Below the pieces are notes generated by a model. The model searched no databases and was not told the origin of the DNA. It was given only the letters and a program-made list of their open reading frames with translations. Below are positions 9,358 through 44,909 of a stretch of 64,000 nt of DNA, one piece after another (the stretch's first letter is position 1; each line of letters starts with the position of its first letter). The position numbers and the translations under genes were made by a program. Origin of the DNA: a bacterium (GTDB taxonomy: Bacteria > Electryoneota > RPQS01); the NCBI GenBank assembly GCA_020846695.1, contig JADLDM010000187.1, forward strand, positions 1,010 through 65,009. Direction: 5' to 3'.

Positions 9358-9358
9358 G

Positions 9359-23050: not shown

Positions 23051-24288
23051 TGGCAACCTTCTCTCCTTCTCTTCCGGGAAACGTGAACACCGGATCATGG
23101 CTGCGAGACAAGCTATTCCTCGGTATGACGCCGAAAGCCTATCTGCGCTCGTTGATCACGCCGTGGCACATGGTCGCCGCAGCAATCCTCGCAATCGGCC
23201 TGCCCGTCTTCTTCCAGAGATTTGCCTATGGAATCGGAGCGGTCTCTAATCTCACCGACACAAATCCGTGGGGAATCTGGATCGGCATTGACGTGCTCTG
23301 CGGAGTTGCTTTAGCCGCCGGAGGATTCATCATCGCCTCAATTGTGCATCTCTTCGGCATGAAAGAATATGCGCCGCTTGTCAGACCCGCAATCCTCACC
23401 GGATTTCTCGGCTACGCATTCGTCGTCGTCGGTTTGATGTTCGACTTGGGCCGACCGTGGAGACTTCCTTATCCGATGACGTTTGCATTCGGAACGAGTT
23501 CCGTCATGTTTGAAGTCGGCTGGTGTGTCGCGCTCTACTTGGGATGCCAATTCGTCGAGATGTTCCCGCCGATTTTTGAATGGCTCGGATACAAGAGGCT
23601 CCGCGCATGGGCCATGACCTTAGTGCTCGGCACAACCGTCCTGGCCGTCGTGCTCTCGACCTTGCATCAATCTTCACTCGGCGCACTCTTCTTGATTGCC
23701 CCAAGTAAACTGCATCCGCTCTGGTACAGCATGTATCTGCCGGTCTATTTTCTGATCAGCGCGGTCGCCGGCGGAATCGGCATGATCATCTTTGAATCCA
23801 CACTTTCACATCGCACTTTCAAAACTCAAACCGGACATTTGAGTCACGCGCAGCTTGATCACCTCGCGCTCGGACTTGCGAAGGGCGGCGCGATTGTCCT
23901 CTACCTCTATTTCTGGCTGAAAGTCGTCGGCCTTGCGCATGAACACCAATGGTCGTTACTTCTCTCTGGATGGGGACTATGGTGGCTCGTCGAAGTCATC
24001 GGTTTCATTCTTGCTCCGGCCTTTCTCTTCCTCTTTGCCGTGCGCGGTTTAAGTCCGCTCCTCGCGCGCGTCGCTGCAGTCTGGACCGTACTCGGATTGA
24101 TCCTTAATCGGCTGAATGTTTCGGTTGTCGCGTTAAATTGGAATCAAACCGAGCGCTACATTCCGCACTGGAAAGAAATCACGATTACCATCACAATCAT
24201 CACGATCGGCGTGCTGGTCTTCCAATGGATGGTCAACCGTATGCCAATTCTTTTACAGCATCCAGATTACGCCGGCGAAAGCCACTAA
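23050..24288 (+). CDS. NrfD/PsrC/HybB-family integral membrane quinol-interacting subunit
   Basis: ~10 TM helices. The start overlaps the Fe-S subunit stop. This is the typical partner of NrfC-like proteins. Confidence 0.85.
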   Translation: MATFSPSLPGNVNTGSWLRDKLFLGMTPKAYLRSLITPWHMVAAAILAIGLPVFFQRFAYGIGAVSNLTDTNPWGIWIGIDVLCGVALAAGGFIIASIVHLFGMKEYAPLVRPAILTGFLGYAFVVVGLMFDLGRPWRLPYPMTFAFGTSSVMFEVGWCVALYLGCQFVEMFPPIFEWLGYKRLRAWAMTLVLGTTVLAVVLSTLHQSSLGALFLIAPSKLHPLWYSMYLPVYFLISAVAGGIGMIIFESTLSHRTFKTQTGHLSHAQLDHLALGLAKGGAIVLYLYFWLKVVGLAHEHQWSLLLSGWGLWWLVEVIGFILAPAFLFLFAVRGLSPLLARVAAVWTVLGLILNRLNVSVVALNWNQTERYIPHWKEITITITIITIGVLVFQWMVNRMPILLQHPDYAGESH

Positions 24289-24449
24289 CCGCGTACACAC
24301 CATGCACACACTTCACGAATTCACGCTCGTTACGCAAGCAGGCGAGTATATCACCGGAATCGTCGGTCTGCTTCTGTTTGTTCCCTTCTGGAAAGCTCTC
24401 AACGCGCGACCCAAGCGCAAACACTAATTTTCGAGTCGGGCGACCGACC

Positions 24450-25541
24450 ATGAAACACTTACTCGCTTTCACCGTCCTCTTCGCGCTGCTTCTGATCGGC
24501 GAATCTTCCCACGCGAAGTCCGGTCCTAATAACGGCTGTGCAGAGTGCCACGTCTGCAGCAACCCCACGCTCTCCGATCCCTGCCTGCGCGGATGCCCGC
24601 GCTCCCGCGCAACGGTTGAAGACATCAAGCTCGGTCCCGATCGCATTCTCATCAACGAAATTGAAGTCGAGTATGACGCGGTTCCCTTTGCTCATCGCCT
24701 TCATGCCGAAATGACTGCGATGGACAAGGGCTGCCAGAATTGCCATCACTTTCAGGAAATCGGCGGTATCACCGCGTGCAAGAATTGCCACCCCGAGCAT
24801 ATCGCAGAAGAGAATCTCGAACAGCCCGGCTTGAAGGGCGCCTATCACCGTCAATGTCTCGGCTGTCATCAGGAGTGGAGCCACGACACGTCGTGCGAAA
24901 TCTGCCACCTGAAGAAGGGATCAGAGCTCGCCGAACCGCAAGTTAAGAGCGGACCCGGCAGTAGATTCGCCGGATTGAATGAGCCCGTCAAAAGAGTTTG
25001 GAATTCAACCTACGGCGGCGGCACCGTCGTCACACTTCACCATCGCAATCACACCGAAAAGTACGGAGTGGAATGCGCGGCATGTCATCACGCCGAAGGC
25101 TGTGCGGTTTGCCATGCGAAAAAAGAGCAGACTACTCAGGTGCGTCACAGCGAAGAGGCTCTGCACGCGATCTGCAATAGCTGTCACGCCGAGATGAGTT
25201 GCGATCAGTGCCATTTGAAGAGCGAGGCGCTGGAGTTTTCTCACGCACGCACAGGCTGGCCTTTGAAGACTTACCACGAGCGTCTGACATGCAGACGTTG
25301 TCACGGTGACAATCATCACTTCACCAAACCCTCCACAGATTGTGCAAGCTGCCACAAACCGTGGGATACCACTACCTTCAAGCATGAGCGCACGGGGCTT
25401 GCTCTCAACGAAACACACCTTGAGACTGATTGCGCTGAGTGTCATGTTGGAGCAAATTACACCGTCGCGCCAACGTGCAACAGCTGTCACGATACGGACA
25501 TTACTTTTCCCGCTTCCTTGCCGGGCAACCGGACGAGGTAA
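24450..25541 (+). CDS. Periplasmic multihaem cytochrome c (13 CxxCH)
   Basis: MKHLLAFTVLFALLLIGESSHA signal peptide. 13 CxxCH motifs counted in the translation. Confidence 0.85.
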   Translation: MKHLLAFTVLFALLLIGESSHAKSGPNNGCAECHVCSNPTLSDPCLRGCPRSRATVEDIKLGPDRILINEIEVEYDAVPFAHRLHAEMTAMDKGCQNCHHFQEIGGITACKNCHPEHIAEENLEQPGLKGAYHRQCLGCHQEWSHDTSCEICHLKKGSELAEPQVKSGPGSRFAGLNEPVKRVWNSTYGGGTVVTLHHRNHTEKYGVECAACHHAEGCAVCHAKKEQTTQVRHSEEALHAICNSCHAEMSCDQCHLKSEALEFSHARTGWPLKTYHERLTCRRCHGDNHHFTKPSTDCASCHKPWDTTTFKHERTGLALNETHLETDCAECHVGANYTVAPTCNSCHDTDITFPASLPGNRTR

Positions 25542-25544
25542 CAT

Positions 25545-28004
25545 ATGAGTCGCACCTACATTCTGCTCCTTGCTCTATTGATTCCGCTCGCGGCTTTCGC
25601 GGGCGATGACGCCGCGTGCGTGGATTGTCACTCCGACGGAACGCTTACCCGAACTCTGGACAACGGAACCGTCATTTCGCTTTGCGTCACATCCGATTCG
25701 CTCAAACTATCGCAACATGCCGCGCTCGCCTGCGTGGATTGCCATGCCGATTTGAAGGGCTTCGACGATTTCCCGCACGACGATAAACTCAAAGTGGTCA
25801 ACTGCGCAAGCTGTCACGCCGGAGCCGCGACTGAAGTCGCGGCAGGAGGACACGAGGGCGCGCTGAAATGCGCAGGCTGTCACGGCAAACACGACATTCT
25901 CTCGCCCAAAACTCCCGGCTCGCTTCTCTCGCCCGATCGCGTTGACAAGACGTGTGCAGAATGTCACAACCGGATGCACCCGCCGCAGAGAGGACGCTCC
26001 GCAGCCTACGCAAGTTATGACGTCGGCATTCACGGAAGGCTGACCGGAAAAAGTACGCGCGACTTGCCGAAGTGCACAACGTGCCATCACGCGCACACGG
26101 TCTCAAGCGAGCACAGGATGTCGAATGTGCTGGAAGACGCCTGCCTGAAATGTCATGACAATATCCGAGAGGAATTTAAGCAATCCGTTCACGGCGCATT
26201 GAATGAAGGACGTAATAAGACGCATTGCTTTGATTGTCACGGAGAACACAGAAGCCGCGCGCCCTCCGACACAACGCTGCGTGTGACCAATGAATCCCCC
26301 GCCGAAGCAACGTGCGGAGCCTGCCACCCTGAATCCGTGCAGCGCTACAATCAGAGTTTGCACGCGTGGGCGCTGGAAACCGGCTCTGTCCGCGCGCCTC
26401 GCTGCGAAAGCTGTCACGGCGCGCATAACATCAGACCCGTCAGTGATCCGCAATCTCCTATGCATCGTTCGCGGCAAGTAGAAACCTGCGCGAAGTGCCA
26501 CAGCCAAATCGGAATCACGCTCGATCCCGATGTGCGCCTACCGCGCTCTTTTGAGAACTATCTTGAGAGCACGCACGGCAAGAAACTGAAAGAGGGAAAC
26601 ACCGAAGTTCCAGTCTGCATAGATTGTCACGGGGGGCACGCGATTCGAGGCGGCAACGATCCCAATTCGACCATTGCGCACGTCAACATTGACAAGACCT
26701 GCGGAAAATGCCATGAGAAGGAGCAGGGTCTCTACCGTCAGTCCATTCACTATCGCGCTTTGATCAGCGGAATTGATGACAGCCCGACTTGCACGGGTTG
26801 TCACGGAGAGCACTTGTTGATCTCGCCGAAAGACCCGCTCTCAAAGGTGAGTCACTCGCGAGTCGCCGCCGAAACCTGCGGCAAATGCCACGAGAACCCC
26901 GATGTGATCCGCAAATACGGATTAGCGCCGGACGTGGTTTCAACCTATTCGGATAGCTATCACGGATTGGCAACGCAGGCGAAGCACAAGGACACTCCCT
27001 CCTGCGCAGATTGCCACGAGGCTCACGACGTTCGCACTGCGCATGATTCGCTCTCAACGATTCACAAGAGCAACGTCACCGAAACGTGCGCGAAGTGTCA
27101 CCCCAAAGCCGATGACAAGTTCGCGGCCTCCTATACGCACGTCGCGCTGCAGCCGGTGGAGGGTGGAGCCAATTGGTGGATCGCACGAATCTACTGGGTG
27201 TTATTGGCCGTGATTATCGGCGGAATGGTTGTTCATAATCTCCTGATTCTGAACTTCCACATGGTGAAAGCGCGCGAGCATCAGACAGCCGGCAAGAAAG
27301 TCACGCGCTTTGACAAACACCAATTAGTCCAGCACATGGCGCTGTCGGTCTCCTTCATCATGCTTGCCGTGACGGGCTTCGCGCTGAAATTCCCGAATGC
27401 ATGGTGGGTGAAATTCTCTGCGATGATCGGTTTCAGCGAACCGGTTCGCAGGATCACGCACCGAATCATGGCCGTGATTCTCATCGGCTGCTCCATCTAT
27501 CACGTCGTCTACCTGTTTATGACGCGCCGCGGACAGGAAGAGTTGAAGGCAATGCTGCCCGCAAAATCCGACGTCAGCGAATTCTCTGAGAACATGGCCT
27601 ATCACCTCAACAAGAGGAAAGACCCGCCGAAATTCGATCGCTATGACTATTCGCAGAAGGCCGAGTATTGGGCCTTGATCTGGGGAACCGTTCTAATGAT
27701 CGCTACAGGATTTGTGCTGTGGTTCCCGGCCGAACTTTCTCCGATACTTCCGGCTTGGGCCGTTCCCGTGAGCCAGACGATTCACCTTTATGAAGCATGG
27801 CTTGCAACGCTCGCGATTGTCGTGTGGCACTTCTTCTTCGTGATCTTCCATCCCGAAGAGTATCCCATGAGCTGGACGTGGTTGACCGGAAAGATTTCGC
27901 TCGATCTGGTCAAGCATCGCCACGAACGCTGGTACGACAAGATCGTGAAGGAAGAGGACGCCAAGCCCGATGCTGCAACCAAAACAGAGAGTCCAAAGCA
28001 ATAG
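25545..28004 (+). CDS. 17-haem cytochrome c fused to a C-terminal multi-TM dihaem cytochrome b-like membrane domain (CbcL-like c/b fusion), paralogue 1
   Basis: Signal peptide MSRTYILLLALLIPLAAFA. 17 CxxCH motifs. The C-terminal ~270 aa have ≥4 hydrophobic helices with conserved His (FDKHQLVQHMALSVSF..., ITHRIMAVIL..., IHLYEAWLATLAIVVWHFF). Confidence 0.8.
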   Translation: MSRTYILLLALLIPLAAFAGDDAACVDCHSDGTLTRTLDNGTVISLCVTSDSLKLSQHAALACVDCHADLKGFDDFPHDDKLKVVNCASCHAGAATEVAAGGHEGALKCAGCHGKHDILSPKTPGSLLSPDRVDKTCAECHNRMHPPQRGRSAAYASYDVGIHGRLTGKSTRDLPKCTTCHHAHTVSSEHRMSNVLEDACLKCHDNIREEFKQSVHGALNEGRNKTHCFDCHGEHRSRAPSDTTLRVTNESPAEATCGACHPESVQRYNQSLHAWALETGSVRAPRCESCHGAHNIRPVSDPQSPMHRSRQVETCAKCHSQIGITLDPDVRLPRSFENYLESTHGKKLKEGNTEVPVCIDCHGGHAIRGGNDPNSTIAHVNIDKTCGKCHEKEQGLYRQSIHYRALISGIDDSPTCTGCHGEHLLISPKDPLSKVSHSRVAAETCGKCHENPDVIRKYGLAPDVVSTYSDSYHGLATQAKHKDTPSCADCHEAHDVRTAHDSLSTIHKSNVTETCAKCHPKADDKFAASYTHVALQPVEGGANWWIARIYWVLLAVIIGGMVVHNLLILNFHMVKAREHQTAGKKVTRFDKHQLVQHMALSVSFIMLAVTGFALKFPNAWWVKFSAMIGFSEPVRRITHRIMAVILIGCSIYHVVYLFMTRRGQEELKAMLPAKSDVSEFSENMAYHLNKRKDPPKFDRYDYSQKAEYWALIWGTVLMIATGFVLWFPAELSPILPAWAVPVSQTIHLYEAWLATLAIVVWHFFFVIFHPEEYPMSWTWLTGKISLDLVKHRHERWYDKIVKEEDAKPDAATKTESPKQ

Positions 28005-28013
28005 ATTGAAGTA

Positions 28014-30512
28014 ATGACGCACCGCATTCCCAAACTTGTTGCGTGGCTGCTCACGCTCGCATTTGCCTGCGCAATTCTTCAGGCGCAATCAAACAGCGAC
28101 TGCATGGACTGCCACAGCGACCCCACGCTGTCGGCCGATCGCCTGACCGGCCCGGTTTCGCTCACGGTGACCACCGACAGTTTGAAGGGCAGCGTGCATG
28201 AAGGTCTCGACTGTATTGACTGTCACGCCGATCTCAAAAATGCGGAATTTCCGCACGAGAGACCGCGCAATGTCAATTGCGGTGAGTGTCATGACGCGGA
28301 GATGAAGACTTTCATGGCGGGCTTTTTCAACAAGCTGAACGCCATGGGTTTTCGTGGTGTGCCGGAGTGTTCGGATTGTCACGGCTCGCACAAGATCACG
28401 GCGCATGCGGATTCGCGGAGAGTGTGCGGGATTTGTCACCGCAATGAGTTAGCCGCCTTCGACAAAAGTGTGCACTCACGCACCGGCAAGGCCGCGAAGG
28501 AACAGATGAGCTGCACGTCGTGCCACGACCCGCATTTCAAATCGCGACGTGACAGTATGTCGGTTGCCGAATGGCGCGAGTACAATGTGCACGGCTGTAT
28601 GGAGTGCCACAAGGGCGAATCCAAGAACTACGTCGCAAGTAAGCACTTCGAAAAGTTGAAAGGCGGCGATCTCGACGCTCCGAACTGCGTGTCCTGTCAC
28701 GGTGAACACGGAGTCCTTTCACCTTCCGATCCCGCTTCGCACGCTTCGGTGGAGCGACTTGATGCCCTCTGCTCAACTTGCCACCAGGGATATGAGGAGT
28801 CACTGCACCGCAAGGACAGCGTGGACGCAAGGCTGATGACTTGTGTCGCTTGTCACACGGGACATCAGACGCAGATGGTTCACGCCTCCGGTGGAATATT
28901 TCGCGAGCAGCTCCCCGCGACCTGTAATCGCTGTCATGAAGGCGAGCGCCACACGAAGGAGTTTCTCGCGCACGGCAAGATCATGACGACATCTGAGACG
29001 GGGGACATTGCAAACTGTACGCAGTGTCACGTCTATCACTTCCAGCGCAAGATTGAAGGGCAGGAGCCTAAATCCAATCTGAGAATGCAGTGCGAAAACT
29101 GCCATTCAAAGGAGTATCAGGAGTACATGCGCTCGGAGCACGGAATCGCCTTTGCAAAGGGGCACACCGAAGCTCCGACCTGCGTTACTTGTCATGGGGA
29201 CAAGGACATTCAGAAGGTTAGTGAAGCGATGCGTCCTCGGCACATCATTGACATGTGCAGCAAGTGTCACGGCAATCGCGACTTCGCTCTGAAGTTCCAA
29301 TTGAATCCTGAAGTCGTGCGCTCTTACGAGCGAACGTACCATGGGCAGGCCTACAATCTTGGCTATCAGGGGGATGACTTTGCGACGTGCGTGAACTGTC
29401 ACGGCAATCACGATATTCGTTCACAAGACGATCCGGAATCAAAGGTCAGCCGACAGCATATCATTGAAACGTGCGCGCGTTGTCATAAGGACGCCAACGA
29501 AAATTTCGTGCAGTTTCTTTCGCACTACGATCCGCACGGCGGGCCGGAAGGAGCGACGAAGTCCGAGCGCAACGTGAGCTACGCCGAGAAATTCATGACG
29601 AATCTTCTGTTTTTCGTCTTTGGTTTCTTCGGATTGCACACGGCGCTTTGGCTGATTCGCGGATTTGCGGAAGGTAGACCGAAACGTTCCAAAGAATCGG
29701 AGCGGAAATGGGTTAGGCGGTTTTCTCCGTGGCAGAGAACACTGCATATCGCGCTGGCTTCAAGCTTCCTGTTGCAGGCGATGACGGGATTGCCGTTGAA
29801 GTTCTCACACAGTGAAGCAGCCTATTGGATCACCAATCATCTGATTGATTTGCGGACGATGGCCATCATTCATCGTATCGGCGCGGCGATTATGATCGCG
29901 ACGTTTGTCCTGCATGTGCTGACGCTGATTTCCGCTTGGCTCTTCTTGAAGAAGAGAGGGTTGTTCTGGGGCGACGGCTCAATGGTTCCGCAATTGCGCG
30001 ACGGCAAGGACATCTTCGCGCACTTCCGCTGGTTCCTCTGGCTTGGGCCGAAACCGAAGTTCGGCAAGTTTACGTATTGGGAGAAGTTCGATTACTTCGC
30101 GGTGTTCTGGGGCGTCTTGATCATCGGATCGAGCGGCTTCATTCTCTGGTATCCGGAGTTTTTCACACAGCTTCTGCCGGGTTGGGTGATTAATCTCGCG
30201 CACATAGTTCATAGTGAGGAAGCTCTGCTTGCAACGGCATTCATCTTCTCGATCCACTTTTTCAACGGACATCTTCGCCCGAGCAAATTCCCGTTCGACG
30301 ACGTGATCTTCACGGGACGCGAATCCACCGAAGAGCTTGAACGCGAGCGGCCGCTCGAAATTGAGCAGCTTATTAAGGAAGGCAAACTTGATGCGCACGT
30401 CGTGCCGCCAATGAAGACGTGGCATAAGTTATTTCTCAAGACGTGGGGATGGTCGGCGTTTCTTGCAGGACTTGTTGTGCTCATCTTCATCATCTATGCG
30501 ATGTTCGGATAG
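28014..30512 (+). CDS. 17-haem cytochrome c fused to a C-terminal multi-TM dihaem cytochrome b-like membrane domain (CbcL-like c/b fusion), paralogue 2
   Basis: Signal peptide MTHRIPKLVAWLLTLAFACAILQA. 17 CxxCH motifs. The C-terminal TM domain has His-containing helices (WQRTLHIALASSFLLQAMTGLPLKF...). It has the same architecture as the upstream gene. Confidence 0.8.
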   Translation: MTHRIPKLVAWLLTLAFACAILQAQSNSDCMDCHSDPTLSADRLTGPVSLTVTTDSLKGSVHEGLDCIDCHADLKNAEFPHERPRNVNCGECHDAEMKTFMAGFFNKLNAMGFRGVPECSDCHGSHKITAHADSRRVCGICHRNELAAFDKSVHSRTGKAAKEQMSCTSCHDPHFKSRRDSMSVAEWREYNVHGCMECHKGESKNYVASKHFEKLKGGDLDAPNCVSCHGEHGVLSPSDPASHASVERLDALCSTCHQGYEESLHRKDSVDARLMTCVACHTGHQTQMVHASGGIFREQLPATCNRCHEGERHTKEFLAHGKIMTTSETGDIANCTQCHVYHFQRKIEGQEPKSNLRMQCENCHSKEYQEYMRSEHGIAFAKGHTEAPTCVTCHGDKDIQKVSEAMRPRHIIDMCSKCHGNRDFALKFQLNPEVVRSYERTYHGQAYNLGYQGDDFATCVNCHGNHDIRSQDDPESKVSRQHIIETCARCHKDANENFVQFLSHYDPHGGPEGATKSERNVSYAEKFMTNLLFFVFGFFGLHTALWLIRGFAEGRPKRSKESERKWVRRFSPWQRTLHIALASSFLLQAMTGLPLKFSHSEAAYWITNHLIDLRTMAIIHRIGAAIMIATFVLHVLTLISAWLFLKKRGLFWGDGSMVPQLRDGKDIFAHFRWFLWLGPKPKFGKFTYWEKFDYFAVFWGVLIIGSSGFILWYPEFFTQLLPGWVINLAHIVHSEEALLATAFIFSIHFFNGHLRPSKFPFDDVIFTGRESTEELERERPLEIEQLIKEGKLDAHVVPPMKTWHKLFLKTWGWSAFLAGLVVLIFIIYAMFG

Positions 30513-30643: not shown

Positions 30644-30856
30644 ATGAAGCGGGAAGTGAAGAATCTGCGGGCAGGAACACGTAAGCTGTTGTGTTACCTA
30701 TTGAACGTTGCGAAGAGTGAAAAGTTCCGGGCTGTTCTTGAAAGAGATAGAGATTGGAGGAGGATTCAGAGCGCACGCAGTGCGGCACTACAGGAAGCAG
30801 ACAGACACGATTTATCATGTCCCTGCGATGAGAAAGAGAAACGGTCGCTTGAGTGA
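30644..30856 (+). CDS. Candidate small charged protein (70 aa) between two terminators
   Basis: A GGAGGTGG SD lies ~15 nt upstream. The ORF MKREVKNLRAGTRKLLCYLL...CPCDEKEKRSLE has its stop inside the loop of the downstream hairpin. The region is purine-rich. The call is speculative. Confidence 0.2.
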   Translation: MKREVKNLRAGTRKLLCYLLNVAKSEKFRAVLERDRDWRRIQSARSAALQEADRHDLSCPCDEKEKRSLE

Positions 30857-30876
30857 GCGACCGTTTGATGTTTTTG
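30838..30876 (-). terminator. Bidirectional hairpin terminator downstream of the minus-strand cytochrome operon
   Basis: AAACGGTCGCttgagtgaGCGACCGTTT. A perfect 10-bp stem with T-rich flanks on both strands. It lies 14-50 nt downstream of the gene ending at 30890. Confidence 0.5.
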
Positions 30877-30889: not shown

Positions 30890-31894
30890 TTACGGGAAGG
30901 TCGCGTTCACAACACCGTTCACGTGAAGTGAAGGATCGAGGAAGCGAATTTCATTTGCGTCATTGTAGTTGGAATTCGGATCTACGTGCGGATGACAGAA
31001 GTGGCAGCGATTCTCCGTCGGATGAAATGGAGCAGTCGGCGGAACCTGATGACAGCCACGACATTGCGTGATCGTCTGACCAGTTGCCCACTCCACTGCG
31101 ACAAGCGGAGCACCCTGATGCAAATCCGAGTGACAATAGGTTGCGCAGGTTCCGTTGCCGAGTTCACTCGGATCTGGAGTGTAGCTGTTCGGGAATCCAT
31201 TCGCATTGGAGATGTGCGCGTCATTGAAGGCAACGTCTGCGGGCAATGCATCAATGTGACTCAAGTCATCTACGTTGCTGTGGCACTCCGTGCAAGCATA
31301 GCGCGAGTGAGCGCCGTGTGCGCCGGGAGGAATAGAACCTATCGGCTCAATCGGCGGCATGCCGTGACATGTGATACAGGCGGCAGGGCCGCCGGGTTCG
31401 GTGTGGCAAGTCAAGCACGAAGAACCGCTGCGACCACCAGCGAAATCTACACCGTGACAGGATTGACAGCTTGCGAGATTCTGCCATTCGAAGTTCAAGA
31501 TATGAACAGGGTGGTTTGCGGTGTAGTTGCTTACATGCGGATAGGAATGACAGTTTGAACAAGCAACGTCGCTGACATATTCCTGCGGATCGGGCGGAAG
31601 CACATCCGGAAAGACGCCGCCCAGAGACGTGGATACGTTGTGACATTCCGCGCAACTCTGACCTTTGCTTCCCAACGCCGCAGTGCCGTGCCATTCTTGG
31701 CTATAGGGATCCATCCAATTGGAAGGATGCACTTGATAGCTGTCGGTAACACGATCTTCACTGCAAGACATGAAGGAGAAAAGCGCGAGCACAAATACTG
31801 TGAACAAGATGAAAATGCGCTTGGGAGTTTGACCCCCCCTTGCCCCCCCGGAAGACCGGTGGGGAATATGAAGTATGGATTTATTTCGCATCAT
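30890..31894 (-). CDS. Multihaem cytochrome c (8 CxxCH + 1 CxxxCH), probable lipoprotein or secreted protein
   Basis: Start chosen at MMRNKSILH... A hydrophobic signal (KRIFILFTVFVLALFSFMSC) follows a Gly-rich leader encoded by G7-CAA-G7. The C-terminus is terminal in the operon. Confidence 0.7.
   Translation of the reverse strand: MMRNKSILHIPHRSSGGARGGQTPKRIFILFTVFVLALFSFMSCSEDRVTDSYQVHPSNWMDPYSQEWHGTAALGSKGQSCAECHNVSTSLGGVFPDVLPPDPQEYVSDVACSNCHSYPHVSNYTANHPVHILNFEWQNLASCQSCHGVDFAGGRSGSSCLTCHTEPGGPAACITCHGMPPIEPIGSIPPGAHGAHSRYACTECHSNVDDLSHIDALPADVAFNDAHISNANGFPNSYTPDPSELGNGTCATYCHSDLHQGAPLVAVEWATGQTITQCRGCHQVPPTAPFHPTENRCHFCHPHVDPNSNYNDANEIRFLDPSLHVNGVVNATFP
31833..31849. repeat. Paired homopolymer tract C7-TTG-C7 (coding strand G7-CAA-G7) in the 5' coding leader of cytochrome gene 30890-31894
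   Basis: Read directly. It encodes SGGARGG upstream of the signal peptide h-region. Confidence 0.6.
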
Positions 31895-32885
31895 GGCACC
31901 TCGCGCAAACCGGTTCCTGATTCGGCACGTCGTGACAGGACATGCAGCTTTCCAAATCAAATTCGGCACTCATGCCGTGCGTTCCGCCGTCGGAAGTTAC
32001 AAAACCCGCGCGGAAGTGATCGGCGGGAAGAATTCCCATGTCGCGATGGCACTCGGTGCAGAAACTTCTCTGTTCGTGACACACTCCGCAACGCATGTCG
32101 GAGAGATGCGCGTCATGTCCATGCGTCGAGAGATATTCGTGCGGGTGCGGACTGATGACCGCATCGCCGTTGTGACAGCTTGCGCAATCGCGCTCTGAAC
32201 CCGATTGATGGCACATCGCGCAATTTGCCGATGTGATATTGGAGGCGATGCCATGCTGCTGAATCCACATCACATTGTGATCGGCGGGTTTCAGTTTGTC
32301 TTCGGGCATGTGACAGACATTGCACTCGCTCGTGACCACGCGTTCGGTGTGACAGTTCACACACGTGGCCATGTCCGGCAGCGGAGCCTTGGTCAAAGCG
32401 CTGCGTGCATCATCTAAACCTACGTGACAGATCGCGCAATCCAATCCAACCTTTTTCACGTGGCGTTCGTGATTAAACTTGGGAAGATACTCCGGAGCGC
32501 GAATCGTTGCGAATCCTTCCGTCTCGCCTTTCAAGCGAATGCCCTTGCCGGACAAGTCATTCTGCTCGTGACAGGCTGCGCAAACCGACCATTCGGGAAG
32601 CAGATTGTCATTGCCTGAAATGCTTGCATCAACGACGTGACACTCGGCGCATTTCATTCCGACTTCTTCGGTGTGGTAGCCGTGACTGAATGCGGGTTTG
32701 CTTGCACTCGAACGAGTCAGCGGGTATTTGTCATCGGCGAGTGATGGACGCGCAATGAGAAGGAGCGTTAGAGCAAGAATACAGAGGGTCGGCTGCAAGC
32801 AGCCAACACCGGAAGAAGGGGGGCAGCCGACACCGGAAGTTATGGAGCCGACACTGCAAGGGGGGGCGAACAATATCGTTTTCAT
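31881..32885 (-). CDS. Multihaem cytochrome c (11 CxxCH)
   Basis: The ATG at 32885 overlaps the porin stop (ATGA). A leader with SGVGC duplications and poly-Pro precedes the signal LCILALTLLLIARPSLA. 11 CxxCH motifs. Confidence 0.75.
   Translation of the reverse strand: MKTILFAPPCSVGSITSGVGCPPSSGVGCLQPTLCILALTLLLIARPSLADDKYPLTRSSASKPAFSHGYHTEEVGMKCAECHVVDASISGNDNLLPEWSVCAACHEQNDLSGKGIRLKGETEGFATIRAPEYLPKFNHERHVKKVGLDCAICHVGLDDARSALTKAPLPDMATCVNCHTERVVTSECNVCHMPEDKLKPADHNVMWIQQHGIASNITSANCAMCHQSGSERDCASCHNGDAVISPHPHEYLSTHGHDAHLSDMRCGVCHEQRSFCTECHRDMGILPADHFRAGFVTSDGGTHGMSAEFDLESCMSCHDVPNQEPVCARCHDAK
32814..32867. repeat. G6 and G7 tracts plus short direct repeats (gcagccRacaccggaag) in the 5' coding leader of cytochrome gene 31881-32885
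   Basis: Read directly. They encode the APP... and ...CPPS... segments and an SGVGC duplication. Confidence 0.55.
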
Positions 32886-34120
32886 TGCTGCCCTCCTTTC
32901 ACGCTCGAAAATCTTCGCGAAAGAGAAAACAGCGCGCGAATGTCCTCGTCGCTGCCTCTATCCTTGATGTGTTCAATGCGCGCCCCAAGCGCACCCATCG
33001 GACACGGCGAGAACGTCAAACCCGCGAAGATCATCTGCGATTCGGAATTGGGGCGCACTTCAGAATTTGAGCCTCTTGAATAGTCGAAGCCTACGCGACC
33101 TGTGAACTTGCCTTTTTCTTTGTGCAGTTCGCCGTAGAATCCGTCCATGTCGCCTTTGTCGGCGGCAAGCCAGTGCACATAGCCCATTTCAACACAAGAG
33201 CGTCCGATTCCCGCGCGAGTCTTGTAGAGCATGTCTTCTTCCGTGAAGAGCAGATAGCCCATGCCCGTCGCGTAGAACTCATTCCAGAAGGTCCACTGCG
33301 CGCCGCCTCGTGCGGAATTTGTTTTTGAGTCCTCGAGGAAATTGGCGAAGAAGGAATCCTCGAAAATTCTCGGCGTCTGCGTGCGCACGTCGGCGGAAAC
33401 CAGCAGATCGGGCCGCGTTTGCCAATAGACCGAAAGTTGTCCCGTCTCAATTGCGCCCTGCTCAAGATTCATGTGCAGGCGCGCGCGAATTGTGACGTCG
33501 CGATTGCGATCGCAGAAAAAGTCAAGACCCGCCCCATTGTAGAGCAGGTCTCCGTCTTTTCCGACATAATAATAGGAGAGCATCAGATTGCGCCCGTAGA
33601 GATTCGTGCGCAAATTGACACCCGCTGCGATTCCCTGATCGGGAACCGATTCATCGAGACTGATCGAGTTGGACAGGCGGGAGCCGCCATAAGCAGCGAA
33701 ACTTGTCTTAGGGCTGAACTGATAGCGGCCCCAGACGCCTGCCACATTTCCACGACCAACTCCCTCCGACAGCCACTGCTGACCAAGCCTGAGAGAGAGT
33801 TTCGATTTCCGGGGTGTGTAGAGGATCAGGCAGCGCTGTATGCGCAGGCTCGTATTCTCACGAGTTCCATTCTGAAAATCCGTAAAACCCCGGAAGGTGC
33901 TTTCAAATCTCCATGCGTCGCCGGCAAATTGGCCGACATTCAAATTGAGCAGCGGCACCACCTGGACGTGATCCACAGAATCATCGCGCAAATAAGACCA
34001 CAACCCAAAACGCCCGGAAACGGAGACAGCTTGCGCTGTCTCCGTTCCGGCTAAAACCAGTCCCATACATGCCGACACGAGGCCGACAAGTAGCATTCTC
34101 CTGCCCAAGATAATCGGCAT
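32882..34120 (-). CDS. Outer-membrane porin-like beta-barrel protein (candidate cytochrome-sheathing porin of a porin-cytochrome conduit)
   Basis: Signal peptide MLLVGLVSACMGLVLAGTETAQA. The sequence has alternating amphipathic beta-strand character rich in Y/F/W/G. No Cys or haem motifs. It is sandwiched between multihaem cytochrome genes. Confidence 0.55.
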   Translation of the reverse strand: MPIILGRRMLLVGLVSACMGLVLAGTETAQAVSVSGRFGLWSYLRDDSVDHVQVVPLLNLNVGQFAGDAWRFESTFRGFTDFQNGTRENTSLRIQRCLILYTPRKSKLSLRLGQQWLSEGVGRGNVAGVWGRYQFSPKTSFAAYGGSRLSNSISLDESVPDQGIAAGVNLRTNLYGRNLMLSYYYVGKDGDLLYNGAGLDFFCDRNRDVTIRARLHMNLEQGAIETGQLSVYWQTRPDLLVSADVRTQTPRIFEDSFFANFLEDSKTNSARGGAQWTFWNEFYATGMGYLLFTEEDMLYKTRAGIGRSCVEMGYVHWLAADKGDMDGFYGELHKEKGKFTGRVGFDYSRGSNSEVRPNSESQMIFAGLTFSPCPMGALGARIEHIKDRGSDEDIRALFSLSRRFSSVKGGQQ

Positions 34121-34148
34121 GAGGGAAACTGCTCCTTTCTGCTGAAAC

Positions 34149-35852
34149 TTACCGGACGGTCATCCTCTTCTGTTCGTTCAGGAGCGGCTGACCCGGCGTC
34201 AAATAATCAATCGCATTCGTCAACAACGAATAAGCGTATTCGTAGTTGTGGACGCCCATCGAGCCTTCATTGGTGATGAAGTACCAGGCATAGGCGGCTT
34301 CGCGCTGTTCACGCGTTGTGCTCGTGGTGTCGAAATTCGGCTCTTCGCCATTGTTCGGCAGCATGGCGAACAGTTGATCCATCAAGCCCTGAATTTCCGT
34401 GCGGCGACCGTGATAGTCGAATCCTTCAGGAGTCGCGTGGCACTGATTGCAAGCCTCGACGCGCGGCTCAAAGGCGTGACCATGATAGTCGTGGCCGGGA
34501 GTGTCGCCCGGAATCGTGTGCACGTGACAGGTCACGCACATATCCGCAAGATTGCCCTCACCAATCACTACATCCGGCTGGTGAGCCGATTCACGATTGT
34601 AAGTATAGCCTGCAATTTCGTAGGAACCGCGACCCAGCATCATGTCTGCCTGGCAGCTTGCGTGTGGTCCGGCGTGCGCGCTACCGTTGTTGATCTGGCC
34701 AACGATGTTTGAGTAGGTGCGGCGAGCATGGTGACACTGTGCGCAGAGCTGTCCCTTGCCGAAGCTCAGAACGCCCAATTCTTCATCGGGAACCCACAGC
34801 GTATCGGCGATGTCCGGTCCAGGATAGACGATGGGGAATGCGCCCAGACCACGCAGGTAGCCCGGATTGTCCTCGCTGAACTCATGCACGTCGTGGCAGG
34901 TTGCACAGGAAACTTGCCAGCCTTCCGCCGGCACTGCTACGTCCGCCCATTCCGGGTCCCATTTCTTAATGAAGGCTTCGGAGATGTGACAGAAGTTGCA
35001 AGACGAGCGATTCCACTCCGTATTGAACTCCTCGATTCCGCCGGCGCGCTCGATCGCGGTGCCGTGCGCGGATTCTTCGTACTCTTCAAATTGCGAGTGG
35101 CAGCGATTACAGGTCTCACCCGTGATAACCAGTTCGACATCCGGCTCATGCGACGAGAAATCCGGGCCCATCGGGCCGTGACAGGCTTCGCAAGTCACAT
35201 TGCGAAGCATGGCATTAGGATAGTCATCATATCCGCCATTGTCAACCCCCGGTGTGGTCACCGAGCCGTCGTAGGCGACGATATCGTCCCAACCGGTGGT
35301 GTGGCACTGCAAGCAGTAGGGATTGTTTTCCGCGCTTGAAGCGACTAATGCATCATAAGCGCCTGCATGGTGGGTGCCGCGCCAGCTTTCCACCTTGGCC
35401 TGATGGCAGTGCGCGCAACGATTCTCACTGTCGCCCAAGTAGCTCGGATAGACCGACGGAACATAGGTGTTCACGCCGACGCGAACCGTGCCAGTCGCCG
35501 ATCCGTCTTCGTCGGTGACGGTGACGGTGATTTCATAGAGACCGATGCCCGAGGGCGGCGTGTAGGTGGTTACTGCCGCGTTGGTGCTGGACAGTGTGCC
35601 CGAAGCTGCCGACCAGTGATAGGTCATGGCGTCGCCATTGGGGTCATAGGCGCTGACAAAGAGCACCGTGCTTTCGCCTGTGCCGACCGAATCAGGAGCC
35701 GCAACAACCGCCGTGATAATCGGCGCCATGTCCGGATTCAAGCCCGACGGTCCCGCAGGCCCTTGGTCGCCTTCGCAACCCCAGAATGCAACGCTGACCG
35801 TAAGCAAGCCTACAATCAGAAATGCAACCGGATGAAGTCTTCTACGTGTCAT
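34149..35852 (-). CDS. Lipoprotein multihaem cytochrome c (9 CxxCH) with an N-terminal PKD/Ig-like domain
   Basis: MTRRRLHPVAFLIVGLLTVSVAFWGC carries a lipobox. A PKD-like segment (VLFVSAYDPNGDAMTYHWSAASG) follows. 9 CxxCH motifs. Confidence 0.8.
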   Translation of the reverse strand: MTRRRLHPVAFLIVGLLTVSVAFWGCEGDQGPAGPSGLNPDMAPIITAVVAAPDSVGTGESTVLFVSAYDPNGDAMTYHWSAASGTLSSTNAAVTTYTPPSGIGLYEITVTVTDEDGSATGTVRVGVNTYVPSVYPSYLGDSENRCAHCHQAKVESWRGTHHAGAYDALVASSAENNPYCLQCHTTGWDDIVAYDGSVTTPGVDNGGYDDYPNAMLRNVTCEACHGPMGPDFSSHEPDVELVITGETCNRCHSQFEEYEESAHGTAIERAGGIEEFNTEWNRSSCNFCHISEAFIKKWDPEWADVAVPAEGWQVSCATCHDVHEFSEDNPGYLRGLGAFPIVYPGPDIADTLWVPDEELGVLSFGKGQLCAQCHHARRTYSNIVGQINNGSAHAGPHASCQADMMLGRGSYEIAGYTYNRESAHQPDVVIGEGNLADMCVTCHVHTIPGDTPGHDYHGHAFEPRVEACNQCHATPEGFDYHGRRTEIQGLMDQLFAMLPNNGEEPNFDTTSTTREQREAAYAWYFITNEGSMGVHNYEYAYSLLTNAIDYLTPGQPLLNEQKRMTVR

Positions 35853-35914
35853 GATTCTTCCCTTTCTTTTCTCTCCCAAGAAACAATTCTACCGCATGTT
35901 ATGTGAATGAAATA

Positions 35915-35937
35915 CCCTCGATTCAATGAATCGAGGG
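35915..35937. promoter_or_regulatory. Perfect 11-bp inverted repeat (CCCTCGATTCA a TGAATCGAGGG) in the leader/promoter of the cytochrome-porin operon
   Basis: The arms were read directly. It lies 63-85 nt upstream of the 35852 start codon on the minus strand. Confidence 0.3.
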
Positions 35938-36366
35938 TAAAAATGTGGCTCAGGTGGGCAGACTCGTCACCTGCAACATCACTTGGCAATGATGCACGGC
36001 ATATTTGAGTTCGTTTGTTTGTCCTGTCCAGCGGGCTTTCATGTTCCGCGACCAATTCTTATTTTATTGAAAGCACTCTGCAACAAACTTATTCAATTTT
36101 CACGCCAACTTCAAGTGAAAATTGTCACTAAGTAACAAACTCACATATGCCGCGCGCCCATCCATAACACGTAAAAACTGCGATGTAGAGTCTTTTTGTC
36201 AACTTCAAATTGTCATATTCGAGAGGCGAAGCGCGATGAGAAGATGCTCATTAAAGTCTCTCTCGCGATGATTTTGCAAGATTATCCGCAATAGAAATGC
36301 AAATCGCGCCACTCTCCTCTATGGGGAGGGACAATCTTGCCCAATAACCGACTAATTTGTCGCCCG

Positions 36367-36672
36367 CTACTTGCCTGAATCGCGGTGCGAGCGAACAAAC
36401 CGCTGAATCTCGTCCGGCTCAAACAGAATCACTTTGCGGGAAAGTCGGACACAGCGCAGCTTGTCCTCCTTCACCCAACGCATAATCGTCGTACGATGGA
36501 CATGGCCGAGCATCTGCGCGGCTTCGGTCAATGTCAGGAGCTTGGAAGGATCGTGCTCGACTGCGGCACTCATCGGGCGCGGGCGAACCTTCGTCATTGC
36601 AGGATCAGGTCGTGTGCCGACCACGGCCTTTTTTAGGCTATTCATGTGCTTGCCTTTCGTTTGCGCAAACAA
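36367..36672 (-). CDS. Small helix-turn-helix DNA-binding protein (excisionase/AlpA/MerR-like HTH)
   Basis: LTLTEAAQMLGHVHRTTIMRWVKEDKLRCVRLSRKVILFEPDEIQRFV is a typical Xis/MerR-type HTH. The start may be the internal M (MNSLKK) at 36645. Confidence 0.55.
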   Translation of the reverse strand: MFAQTKGKHMNSLKKAVVGTRPDPAMTKVRPRPMSAAVEHDPSKLLTLTEAAQMLGHVHRTTIMRWVKEDKLRCVRLSRKVILFEPDEIQRFVRSHRDSGK

Positions 36673-36685
36673 AAGATGAAGACGG

Positions 36686-38626
36686 CTATTGAGCCGTACT
36701 TATCGTCTCAAACCACTTATGGAACAGCTCGGGATTGTGAACCGTCTTGCTGCCGTCCTTGCGCAGCATCTCGGCCAATTCCGAGTATTGTCGCTGAATT
36801 TCAGAACCGGGACGATATTGTCCAACCGCGAGATCTGCACGCTTCATCAGATCACTTCCCGAATCCACCCAAACCTTGAGCGAATCGGAGTATTCCGCAT
36901 CGTGACAAGTGACACAGCTTGCGGACACATCGCGCAGAACCTTGCTCTTGCCCGCTTCATGGCAATCCGTGCAGGAGACATCTTCTTGCCACATCGCAGA
37001 GGGAATTTTCGAGGCGAAGCTCTTCACCTCGCCCTTGTACACCGCGAGTTGTGCCGCGTGACAGCGCGAACAATCCTCCTTGCCGGTTGCCACGCTCTGA
37101 TGGTGACAGCTATTGCACTGCTCGCGCGACATCACCAGCTTGCCATGCGGTTCTCCTCCGACCTCATGACAGGTCTCGCATTTGCTCTGTGAAGTGTGCT
37201 TGCGGTGATCGAACATCCTTCCGTCGAAGGCCACCAACGCGTCGCCCGCCGAGGGATGACATCCCATGCAGGTCGTCGAACTGGAGCGCGCGCTGATCGG
37301 TTCAATCTGCATCGCGAGCTTCTCGATCATCTCCGGATTGTGAATCGGATTGCCCGCTTCATAAATCCGCAGCGCCGCCACAAGCGAATCGCGCGAAGCG
37401 GGTTCGAGCTTTTCGGCGCCGACCATTAATTCACGCACGCGCCTCTTCAACGGCTCTTCCCAGCGCTTCCAAAGATCGCCGTATCCGGTGTCGTGACAGG
37501 GAATGCAAGTCGGTTCGGGGCGCATCTCCTTTGCCGCGTGAACATCGCCGACATGACAGGAGGAGCAGGTCATTCCCGCGCGCGACATCGAGGAGGGCGC
37601 GAGTTCCATGCCCGGGAGATTTCCCTCCCATACGCGCTCGATGGCATTTTCCGGCCCGCCGTGACATGTTCCGCACTCGCGATCAACATTCGCCTGCGCG
37701 ACGGCCTCTTTTCCGTGACGAATTACCACGTGACATTGCGTGCACTCAACCGTGTGCTCCGTTACGTGCATCTGGTGGACGAACTCGCGATCCTCATACT
37801 TCTCGATGTGATCCACCTTCGCGTGACAGGAATTGCAGCGTTCCTTCGGAACAAATCCGTCGCCCGCGACTTCCGCCGCGTGGCAGCTTGAGCAATTCGC
37901 ATTGCGCGCCAGCATCTCCGTGTGATCAAAGCTCGTATCCGCGGCGGCAACTCCCTTCGGAGGATTGTGACATTTCGTACAAGTCGCAAGTTCCGACCAT
38001 TTGCCTGATGCATCCGGCTTGAAATGGCAGAGAAAACAGGTTGTCTCATTCACGCTGATATGCTCGCCCTGAACAATCTGCGCGTGACACGACGTGCATC
38101 TCAATTGCCGGTCGCGACGCACCTGCTCCAAGTGAGGCTTGTGATCAAAGAGCACACCCTTGAAATCCTCGGCGCTCTGCAAAAGTCTTGTGTCGTGACA
38201 GCCTGAACGCAAACAGGATGCGTCTTCGATTTCCGCCCACGGCTTCGAGCGCTTGTAAACTCCCGTGAAGTAGTTCGCCACCATCGAGAGCGCCATGAAT
38301 TTCGAATGCACCGTGCCCTCGAACCCCGGAGGAATGTGACATTCGGTGCACGTCACTTGACTGTGTGTCGAAGTTTCCCACGCGGCGAAATACGGCTCCA
38401 TCACGTGACACGATTTGCAGAACGTCGGCTGCGACGTCACCTTCACAAACGCCGTCATCGCAATCACCGTCACGACGACCGTAGCCATCAACACCAAGCC
38501 AATCCGCTTCGGACCGAAAGCGAGCAGTCTTGCCCACCCTACCTTGATCATCCAAAACGGGAGCTTGATCGTCTCCCAGCAGGCGACGAAAAACTCTTTG
38601 AACAAGCTGTTCTTCGGCTCCGTCAT
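36686..38626 (-). CDS. Membrane-anchored NapC/NirT/ImcH-like multihaem cytochrome c (17 CxxCH), putative quinol dehydrogenase
   Basis: An N-terminal TM helix is immediately followed by FCKSCH (the NapC/NirT hallmark). 17 CxxCH motifs. The start was chosen at MTEPKN, but upstream in-frame starts are possible. Confidence 0.7.
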   Translation of the reverse strand: MTEPKNSLFKEFFVACWETIKLPFWMIKVGWARLLAFGPKRIGLVLMATVVVTVIAMTAFVKVTSQPTFCKSCHVMEPYFAAWETSTHSQVTCTECHIPPGFEGTVHSKFMALSMVANYFTGVYKRSKPWAEIEDASCLRSGCHDTRLLQSAEDFKGVLFDHKPHLEQVRRDRQLRCTSCHAQIVQGEHISVNETTCFLCHFKPDASGKWSELATCTKCHNPPKGVAAADTSFDHTEMLARNANCSSCHAAEVAGDGFVPKERCNSCHAKVDHIEKYEDREFVHQMHVTEHTVECTQCHVVIRHGKEAVAQANVDRECGTCHGGPENAIERVWEGNLPGMELAPSSMSRAGMTCSSCHVGDVHAAKEMRPEPTCIPCHDTGYGDLWKRWEEPLKRRVRELMVGAEKLEPASRDSLVAALRIYEAGNPIHNPEMIEKLAMQIEPISARSSSTTCMGCHPSAGDALVAFDGRMFDHRKHTSQSKCETCHEVGGEPHGKLVMSREQCNSCHHQSVATGKEDCSRCHAAQLAVYKGEVKSFASKIPSAMWQEDVSCTDCHEAGKSKVLRDVSASCVTCHDAEYSDSLKVWVDSGSDLMKRADLAVGQYRPGSEIQRQYSELAEMLRKDGSKTVHNPELFHKWFETISTAQ

Positions 38627-38994
38627 GGCGCGCTTCGCTTCGCTGCGGCGGTGTGACGAGCCGTCTGAACACGCGAGGCAGACCGGCTCTGCTGCAAAGC
38701 CGGTCGAAGAAGTGGAGAGGCGAAATGTGTCAAGGCGCTGCTTCTTGAGGGAGGTCAGCTTTCGTGAAAATTTACACAAGTAATATCGTTAAGCAGTCGT
38801 GCATAGTCAAGCAGAAAGGACGGGTTTTTGTCACAAACCCTTTATTTCCCATGCTTACCCTGCCATCGCAATTCCAAAATTTCCCTATAATCCGACTCGT
38901 ATTCTCCACTTAAAAGAGAGGAGCTCCCCATTTCTCCCTAAACTACATACTCTTACGTCCGCTTTCTCTGTTGTGCCTCGCGATCTTTCATATA

Positions 38995-41264: not shown

Positions 41265-41338
41265 TTTCTTGATGGGCGCCGGGGCCTTGTGATTGCGCGA
41301 GTGCGGCCTTATATTAGGGCAACAAGTGAGGTGTGTTT

Positions 41339-44908: not shown

Positions 44909-44909
44909 A

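Follow-up and report, generated by a model that had tools for sequence, protein, structure and literature searches.

A four-gene locus encoding a probable porin-cytochrome electron conduit with an unannotated outer-membrane barrel in a bacterium of the Electryoneota

We describe here a four-gene unit in a 64,000-nucleotide stretch of bacterial DNA, hereafter the window (GTDB lineage Bacteria; Electryoneota; RPQS01; GenBank assembly GCA_020846695.1, contig JADLDM010000187.1, positions 1,010 to 65,009). Genes A, B, C, and D follow one another on the minus strand and are bounded by hairpins on both sides (Table 1); the hairpin after D is the operon end, and the one upstream of A sets the operon apart from HTH_17 and NapC/NirT genes. 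A preliminary description of this DNA had listed the same four open reading frames and the ATGA shared by the stop codon of B (TGA) and the start codon of C (ATG), and both were found in place. The translational coupling that it read from this overlap stands, but it missed a second one, in which the start codon of D (ATG at 31894, beginning MMRNKS) lies on the stop of C.

Table 1. Features of the operon and its surroundings, in window coordinates
Feature	Position	Strand	Content or basis
Two paralogous 17-haem cytochrome c/cytochrome b fusions	25545-30512	plus	17 CxxCH each
Terminator-like hairpin directly 3' of D stop	30839-30866	minus	11-pair stem, then T-rich tail
Gene D	30890-31894	minus	Lipoprotein, 8 CxxCH plus CATYCH, candidate cell-surface partner
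C stop/D start 14-nt overlap, ATGATGCGAAATAA	31881-31894	minus	Read directly from sequence
Gene C	31881-32885	minus	Secreted, non-lipoprotein, 11 CxxCH, c7-type units, candidate wire inside and below barrel
B stop/C start overlap, ATGA	32882-32885	minus	Read directly from sequence
Gene B	32882-34120	minus	412 aa, predicted outer-membrane barrel, candidate sheath of conduit
Gene A	34149-35852	minus	Lipoprotein, PKD domain, 9 CxxCH
PKD/Ig-like domain of A (residues 47-127)	35472-35714	minus	Pfam matches and PKD structure 6aem
Terminator-like hairpin upstream of A	35913-35939	minus	12-pair stem
Membrane-anchored 17-haem NapC/NirT-family cytochrome	36686-38779	minus	PF03264 and NrfH-type models at N-terminus

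The product of B begins with a signal peptide (residues 1-31, nt 34028-34120, ending AQA/V) and is rich in aromatic residues (12.6%), as previously noted; it is not free of cysteine as had been stated: of its five Cys, none of which is conserved, the signal peptide contains one and the mature chain the other four. It holds no CxxCH and no variant haem motif, and assignment to the Cyc2-type fused porin-cytochromes was rejected on this ground. The AlphaFold model (pLDDT 83) consists of the signal helix and a plug-less 22-strand barrel, with no periplasmic TPR or POTRA-type domain. A relative at about 19% identity adopts the same 22-strand fold (pLDDT 95), and the structural neighbours of both models are outer-membrane barrels only. 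A soluble protein, a helical protein, or a homologue of a known periplasmic protein had been named as outcomes that would speak against a porin; none of these applies, and the prediction of a transmembrane beta-barrel has good confidence. At E values up to 0.1, B has no match among the Pfam and NCBIfam models, those for MtrB and PioB included. Likeness to the MtrB structure is generic, with ushers and substrate porins scoring higher, and MtrB is absent from the matches listed for B's own model.

Gene C carries 11 CxxCH motifs, in agreement with the earlier count, and has no lipobox. Most orthologues have 12 motifs, and the 11 of the window's subclade result from replacement of the third. An orthologue profile matches the Geobacter dodecahaem c7-polymer GSU1996 (3ov0) at E 2.5e-28 over three stretches, and it also matches ACIII ActA and, weakly, MtrA (6r2q_A, 1.8e-6); C itself gave no match to TIGR03508 (NCBIfam). 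The homology to GSU1996, a spacing of about 26 residues per haem, and the conservation of about 10 non-motif (distal) His residues together suggest a wire-like protein. The signal region is unusually long (about 50 aa), with a 30-aa insert and a single basic residue, which makes the efficiency of export or the true start codon somewhat uncertain.

The motif content given previously for D (8 CxxCH and one CxxxCH) was recovered, making nine candidate haem sites in all; its lipoprotein nature (lipobox FMSC, Cys44, then C-SEDR) had gone unnoticed. D contains the CxxxxCH/CxxCH domain (TIGR01904 in NCBIfam, 34.2 bits against a cut-off of 27; PF09698 in Pfam, 24.3 against 21.7), and the atypical motif, CxxxCH here, is CxxxxCH in other orthologues. 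The D profile matches OmcA at E 1.6e-7.

Gene A encodes 567 aa from the ATG at 35852, within an open reading frame that opens at TTG 35879. It was described as a nine-haem lipoprotein with a PKD/Ig-like domain, a reading borne out by nine CxxCH motifs, a lipobox (FWGC, with Cys26, continuing C-EGDQGPAGP), and a domain that passes the Pfam cut-offs for PKD (27.9 bits, cut-off 23.5), PKD_4 (30.2, 27), and Big_9 (33.9, 23.6) and scores at or above that for K319L-like_PKD. A falls under the Pfam cut-off for the MtrC/MtrF domain. Its orthologue profile matches, beyond the PKD structure, OcwA (6i5b; E 1.2e-12, five collinear stretches), cytochrome c554 (3.2e-8), and the C-terminal helices of NrfA (8e-6). 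OcwA (PMC6703420; 6i5b) is a terminal reductase with nine haems at the surface of Thermincola potens. A fits the OcwA-like nonahaem cytochromes by this homology, by its nine haem sites, and by its two-part build, with a c554-like tetrahaem portion at the N-terminus and an NrfA-like helical, pentahaem portion at the C-terminus. Whereas OcwA resides in a Gram-positive cell wall, A is found in a diderm, is lipid-anchored, has an added N-terminal PKD domain, and is encoded beside a barrel.

Surface-lipoprotein export in Bacteroidota is signalled by a polar residue and then at least two acidic residues right after the lipidated Cys (PMC5080379). The S-E-D of D resembles this signal, which has been validated only in Bacteroidota, and S-(D/E)-(D/E) follows the anchor Cys of D orthologues in 14 of 19 loci. 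The EGDQ of A is a loose fit to the same pattern, again with the signal demonstrated only in Bacteroidota. Surface exposure or substrate contact had been suggested from the PKD domain of A, which alone says little about exposure; better arguments are the acidic stretch behind the anchor Cys of D and the presence of lipid anchors.

The B family comprises at least 287 clusters. All members seen so far come from uncultured, metagenome-assembled genomes and are labelled hypothetical; their hosts, found in sediment, groundwater, and wastewater, include Calditrichota-like bacteria, Ignavibacteriota, Bacteroidota, and other candidate phyla. MtrB_PioB matched none of 109 distant relatives. A C homologue lies within 40 nt 3' of the barrel gene in 19 of the 19 loci with readable downstream DNA, as well as in the window, at 30-53% identity and with haem motifs aligned. 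The order of barrel and cytochrome is kept in all five distant relatives examined at locus level, and the synteny persists at barrel identities of 16-21% over several candidate phyla while the partner cytochrome co-diverges. The next gene after C encodes a D-type lipoprotein cytochrome, with 8 CxxCH and one atypical motif, in every readable locus except L027. These two constancies are the strongest available evidence for a porin-cytochrome unit. The barrel-cytochrome junction is tight beyond chance. Of 21 independent loci, 12 have a 4-nt NTGA overlap there and 8 more have a spacer of 3 to 12 nt, in most of which a Shine-Dalgarno sequence abuts the stop codon; 20 of the 21 junctions are thus either an NTGA overlap or a spacer no longer than 12 nt. 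At the C/D junction, orthologues show an overlap of 4 to 14 nt or a gap of 0 to 8 nt, with a single 35-nt gap in L025. B-C-D is the conserved core, and the PKD cytochrome A is accessory and present only in one subclade.

Further multihaem cytochromes flank the operon. The two fusions are built like CbcL, in the manner of inner-membrane quinol dehydrogenases; the first clearly matches Ni_hydr_CYTB and formate-dehydrogenase gamma-type b domains, and the second does so weakly. The NapC/NirT-family protein has 17 CxxCH plus CLRSGCH. Genes of both kinds also neighbour the operon in L001 and L028. The window additionally encodes a T9SS-tailed protein, consistent with a host of the FCB group.

Gene content, haem motifs, lipoboxes, the barrel fold prediction, family-wide synteny, and tight gene coupling are established, and we consider an outer-membrane porin-cytochrome electron conduit the likely product of the four genes. 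The preliminary description had reached the same interpretation, which gains support from the fold of B and the B-C(-D) synteny. Threading of C through B, stoichiometry, and electron transfer are proposed by analogy with MtrCAB and Pcc, and we likewise infer the physical complex, its topology, the direction of electron flow, the substrate, and the function. B would form a wide barrel without a plug in the outer membrane. C, exported by Sec and non-lipidated, would form a haem-dense c7-type chain in and below the barrel lumen and receive electrons from the periplasm, their source most likely being the quinol pool by way of the CbcL-like and NapC/NirT-type neighbour cytochromes. D and A would sit on the outer face as lipid-anchored multihaem cytochromes, D as the constant partner meeting C at the barrel mouth and A as an accessory terminal reductase, an OcwA-like nonahaem protein extended on its PKD domain. 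The acceptor that A may thereby touch outside the cell could be, for example, an Fe(III) or Mn(IV) mineral, humic matter, an electrode, or another cell.

The proposed conduit belongs to the Geobacter Pcc/Ext kind, as an additional member of a known machine type with an unannotated barrel family. [quoted passage not shown] Pcc porins have 18-22 strands (PMC4282303) and B has 22 in the AlphaFold model. D carries a CxxxxCH/CxxCH domain, which was defined in Geobacter, and a small DNA-binding protein gene lies upstream in both systems. The two differ in haem content (8 in OmaB against 11 in C, or 12 in most orthologues, of poly-c7 type; 12 in OmcB against nine sites in D), in the CxxxCH motif of D, and in the extra upstream lipoprotein A with its PKD and OcwA-like cytochrome parts. 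OmbB-like porins have been reported in Ignavibacteria (PMC7399161), which also hold distant relatives of B, so a remote link between B and OmbB is possible. In ExtABCD and ExtEFG a periplasmic dodecahaem cytochrome and an 18- to 21-strand barrel are likewise combined with small lipoprotein cytochromes, one or two in number (PMC6148476), and C is homologous to GSU1996, the Geobacter dodecahaem c7-polymer. ExtABCD, like the present operon, combines two lipoprotein cytochromes with a roughly dodecahaem periplasmic one, a likeness of composition; gene order is not the same, and the lipoproteins have 5 and 12 haems in ExtCD and 5 in ExtF against 9 and 9 here. Matches of A and D to models and structures of the MtrC/OmcA type are weak. 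Membership in MtrAB/PioAB/MtoAB was rejected: B lacks an MtrB_PioB match and has 22 strands and 412 aa rather than the 26 strands and about 650 aa of Shewanella MtrB (6r2q), and C is not a DmsE/MtrA-family decahaem cytochrome.

The same machine might instead run inward, as in MtoAB and PioAB: a donor outside the cell, for instance Fe(II), a reduced mineral, a partner cell, or a cathode, would supply the electrons, and the quinone pool or periplasmic reductases would receive them. Both reducers and oxidisers are reported to carry such conduits and inner-membrane cytochromes of the CbcL/MtoC type, and sequence leaves the direction of flow unfixed (PMC6295460). Genes for a cbb3-type oxidase and for Rieske/cytochrome b proteins lie beside one distant relative (L026), surroundings that typify lithotrophic oxidisers. 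We nevertheless regard inward flow as improbable. The window encodes an OcwA-like cytochrome, presumably extracellular, and the homologue that has been characterised works as a terminal reductase (PMC6703420); MtoAB and PioAB have no extracellular cytochromes (PMC5566968), and the operon in the window has no adjacent oxidase or carbon-fixation genes, its neighbours being glycan-degrading and acetyl-CoA-ligase-type genes.

A role for B as a solute or substrate channel serving periplasmic reductases, or as a translocon or anchor exporting the lipoprotein cytochromes, with C wholly periplasmic, is very unlikely. In its favour, the nearest structural neighbours are usher pores, which translocate proteins, and substrate-specific porins of the Occ and sugar types; a few distant relatives weakly match Porin_4 and OMP_b-brl, and one bears the UniRef name 'alginate export domain'. 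ExtI is a precedent, a porin encoded among cytochromes for which a channel role with selenite and tellurite has been proposed (PMC5877670). The invariant and usually translationally coupled partner of B is, however, the non-lipidated, wire-like C and not a lipoprotein; the TPR or POTRA-type domain of known lipoprotein and protein translocons is missing; and an unfilled plug-less barrel of 22 strands would presumably open an unregulated passage about 3 nm wide. That B is a general porin lying by chance in a cytochrome-rich island, as its want of a family annotation and of haem or metal motifs would allow, has a negligible probability against synteny kept across such divergence, a co-diverging partner, and overlapping start and stop codons.

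Beyond the outer-membrane conduit favoured here, a broader reading would make B-C-D a separate conduit class, independent of Mtr, Pcc/Ext, PCC3, and PCC4, specific to the FCB group, and defined by the unannotated 22-strand barrel family. A Bacteroidota-type acidic export signal would place its cytochromes on the surface, and an OcwA-type reductase, otherwise characterised in Gram-positive bacteria, would have been recruited in one subclade. We hold this reading only tentatively and think it the less probable course.

Through porin-cytochrome conduits, bacteria can respire with minerals, electrodes, and partner cells; the models by which genome surveys recognise such conduits derive from a small number of Shewanella and Geobacter proteins. 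The known working principle of these conduits stays unchanged by the findings on B-C-D. The OcwA-like lipoprotein A would link the surface reductases of diderms and monoderms. Many uncultured lineages have a conserved three-gene conduit marked by the unannotated barrel family, and a profile of this family would expose a capacity for extracellular electron transfer that current annotation may miss.

Four open reading frames (ORFs) on the minus strand, here called A to D, lie head to tail. The best-supported reading is that this operon encodes a porin-cytochrome conduit, a kind established for MtrCAB and the Geobacter Pcc complex. As the preliminary description stated, the TGA of B and the ATG of C share the sequence ATGA (32882-32885); the C/D junction, which it did not mention, is also coupled, with the ATG of D located 14 nt upstream of the TAA of C (ATGATGCGAAATAA). 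A 28-nt spacer containing AGGAG separates A from B. Terminator-like hairpins are found upstream of A and just past D, so the four genes look like a single transcription unit.

Features of the predicted conduit operon and its surroundings
Feature	Position in window	Strand	Description
A	34149-35852	minus	567 aa, 9 CxxCH; ORF opens at TTG 35879, ATG 35852 fits orthologues
B	32882-34120	minus	412 aa, no haem motifs
C	31881-32885	minus	334 aa, 11 CxxCH
C N-terminus	32790-32885	minus	insert of ~30 aa in signal region
D	30890-31894	minus	334 aa, 8 CxxCH and CATYCH
Terminator-like hairpin	35939-35913	minus	upstream of A
Terminator-like hairpin	30866-30839	minus	just past D
Cytochrome island, part	21154-30512	plus	upstream elements of operon
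Cytochrome island, part	36367-38779	minus	other side; HTH_17 gene and NapC/NirT-anchored 17-haem cytochrome
PGA_cap/PKD gene	41333-44257	plus	974 aa, PKD and PGA_cap domains
T9SS-tailed gene	44868-46568	plus	beta-helix protein with T9SS C-terminal sorting domain

The AlphaFold2 model of B (alignment of 46 homologues; pLDDT 83.3, pTM 0.71) shows a signal helix and then 22 beta-strands connected by short turns, with no other domain. Sequence analysis indicates alternating hydrophobicity in many of the strands, and no stretch of B resembles a helical membrane span. The model of a distant relative approximately 19% identical to B (P0055, alignment A3; pLDDT 95) also has 22 strands and preserves even the short helix linking strand 13 to strand 14. 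The structure models thus bear out the barrel proposed earlier, giving neither a soluble nor a helical protein. The accompanying claim that B is Cys-free was wrong: the protein has five cysteines, of which the mature chain keeps four, and none is conserved. By standard barrel geometry, 22 strands correspond to a C-alpha diameter of ~40 Å (32-34 Å for 18 and 46-48 Å for 26), so the lumen of B could in principle hold a haem-packed polypeptide. A lipobox at the N-terminal cysteine (VSAC) was rejected because this residue lies in the middle of the hydrophobic core, precedes a signal peptidase I site (AQA/V), and is absent from orthologues.

Pfam and NCBIfam scans of B returned no match, nor did a search of its profile against PDB sequences, even at an E value of 10. 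A word-indexed search found 47 close homologues (including the window's own record, IT157_09705) with 38-64% identity, all labelled hypothetical and derived from metagenomes or metagenome-assembled genomes; when the profiles were broadened, word-indexed searching still yielded close relatives only. Scanning one genome per species identified 17 B-type loci, all in metagenome-assembled genomes. A complete HMMER search of 1.84 billion representatives yielded 287 clusters at E ≤1e-3 and 108 at E ≤1e-10; setting aside fragments of the close family, most of the 150 listed are 380-460 aa long, with alignments covering the greater part of each sequence. The close set aligns with the distant set in a profile-profile comparison (383 columns, E 3.7e-57). 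The 30 distant relatives looked up are labelled Calditrichia, Ignavibacteriota, Bacteroidota, and Handelsmanbacteria; all are from metagenome-assembled genomes, and neither Geobacter nor another cultured organism was found among them. Generic porin models are weakly matched by a few distant family members, and MtrB_PioB by none of those scanned. Many of the genomes that carry the cluster (loci L006, L007, L010, L012, L015, L017, L021, and L022) are titled "uncultured Alphaproteobacteria bacterium," yet their closest relatives are labelled Calditrichaeota or just "bacterium"; these titles appear to be placeholders or taxonomic errors.

Family-wide synteny identifies B-C-D as the conserved unit. 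A homologue of C with 11 to 14 haems directly follows the barrel gene in every locus with readable downstream DNA (30-53% identity, with haem motifs and distal histidines aligned), although split into two ORFs in L018 and truncated to 9 motifs in L009. The next gene in nearly all loci encodes a lipoprotein cytochrome with 8 CxxCH and one CxxxCH or CxxxxCH; the exceptions at this position have 12+1 sites (L002), 7+4 sites (L028), or a short 2-haem lipoprotein (L025), and no D-type lipoprotein cytochrome was found in L027. The C-type cytochrome also follows the barrel in each of the five loci examined from distant relatives. In one of these five, L023, public gene calls miss an 11-haem ORF directly after the barrel gene (6117-6965, 4-nt overlap) and place two small opposite-strand ORFs there instead, so automated annotation can hide a conduit of the B-C-D type. 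Of 21 loci, 12 have an NTGA overlap where the barrel gene meets the cytochrome gene and a further 8 have a 3- to 12-nt spacer there; in most of these 8, a Shine-Dalgarno sequence abuts the stop codon. The PKD cytochrome A occurs only in the window's subclade; upstream of the barrel elsewhere are other lipoprotein cytochromes (L025, L026, and L027) or none.

Protein C has a cleavable signal (SLA/DD), no lipobox, ~26 residues per haem, and approximately ten conserved non-motif histidines. Its orthologue profile matches GSU1996, the Geobacter dodecahaem c7-polymer (3ov0; E 2.5e-28), as well as ACIII ActA and, weakly, MtrA. The insert in the signal region of C has no counterpart in orthologues and contains a direct repeat (SGVGCPPSSGVGC) and a hairpin with an 8-bp stem (32807-32788). 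The resulting signal region of ~50 aa has a single basic residue, which makes either the true start codon or the efficiency of export uncertain. In a comparison with loci L002, L004, L010, and L012-L022, C in the A-carrying subclade has lost one haem site, DLSGKGIRLKG standing in place of the third CxxCH of the 12-haem orthologues; this loss coincides with the gain of A.

Both A and D are lipoproteins, of which only A had been recognized as such in the preliminary description. Protein D has the lipobox FMSC and passes the curated cutoffs of CxxxxCH/CxxCH domain models (Pfam and NCBIfam). Its lipidated cysteine is followed by S-E-D, with S-(D/E)-(D/E) present in 14 of 19 loci. This motif resembles the signal for lipoprotein export demonstrated in Bacteroidota (SDDDD, SDDFE; PMC5080379), which would be a specific argument for exposure of D at the cell surface. 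The signal peptide of A ends in the lipobox FWGC, and residues 47-127 form a PKD/Ig domain that exceeds Pfam cutoffs. The cytochrome part of A matches c554, NrfB, and NrfA-type models. A profile of nine A orthologues matches OcwA (6i5b; E 1.2e-12), the nonahaem surface reductase of Thermincola potens; the match comprises five collinear stretches and extends from the first haem motif through the C-terminal helices. The profile also matches c554 and NrfA. The architecture of A corresponds to that described for OcwA, in which a tetrahaem part resembling c554 is combined with a pentahaem part and a helix bundle (PMC6703420).

Among known systems, the operon has the gene order of ombB-omaB-omcB in Pcc, and the 22 strands of B fall within the 18 to 22 reported for Pcc porins (PMC4282303). 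With ExtABCD it shares a composition of one approximately dodecahaem periplasmic cytochrome and two lipoprotein cytochromes (PMC6148476). Ignavibacteria are reported to have OmbB-like porins (PMC7399161), which makes remote homology of B to OmbB a real possibility. The operon is not of the Mtr/Pio type: B has no MtrB_PioB match, a DmsE-family decahaem cytochrome is lacking, and B has 22 strands where MtrB has 26; membership of B in MtrB was rejected on the missing model match and the strand count. A Cyc2-like fusion was rejected because B carries no haem motif.

The operon lies within a cytochrome island. Its plus-strand genes encode a 4-haem c554-like cytochrome, a TAT-exported 4Fe-4S protein, an NrfD-like membrane subunit, a 13-haem cytochrome, and two paralogous 17-haem cytochrome c-cytochrome b fusions. 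The architecture of these fusions is like that described for CbcL, whose homologues are known from Calditrichaeota, Ignavibacteriae, and Handelsmanbacteria (PMC6295460). The island layout recurs in L001 and partly in the distant L028. Together, the flanking cytochromes and the operon would provide a plausible route for electrons from quinol to the cell surface. Farther along the window are genes for a PGA_cap (poly-gamma-glutamate capsule synthesis)/PKD protein and a T9SS-tailed protein, which would fit an FCB-group host; a homologous PGA_cap/PKD gene is found near the barrel in L004. AABM5-125-24 genomes from wastewater plants in Denmark have been noted to carry multihaem surface proteins (PMC11495043). 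Two B-type loci have names styled like those of Danish wastewater-plant genomes.

In the proposed conduit, B would be the sheath, C the wire leading into it from the periplasm, D the constant surface partner, and A an accessory terminal reductase; we infer complex formation, threading, stoichiometry, and substrate. The OcwA-like A and the heterotrophic gene context speak for electrons flowing outward, although sequence cannot fix the direction. Inward flow is hinted at for some members: in the distant locus L026 (JGI 3300031965, 1-13320), the barrel-cytochrome unit has a Rieske/cytochrome b complex with a multihaem cytochrome on one side and a cbb3-type oxidase operon on the other, a context in which oxidative electron transfer may operate.

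The preliminary description was right in outline about a feature that proves well conserved across loci, and correct on its genes except for the cysteines of B, the lipoprotein status of D, and the C/D coupling. The operon belongs to an already known kind of conduit. New here are the OcwA-like PKD lipoprotein A, the export-signal-like motif in D, and a 22-strand barrel family without annotation, which in uncultured FCB-related lineages serves as a marker of a conserved three-gene conduit.
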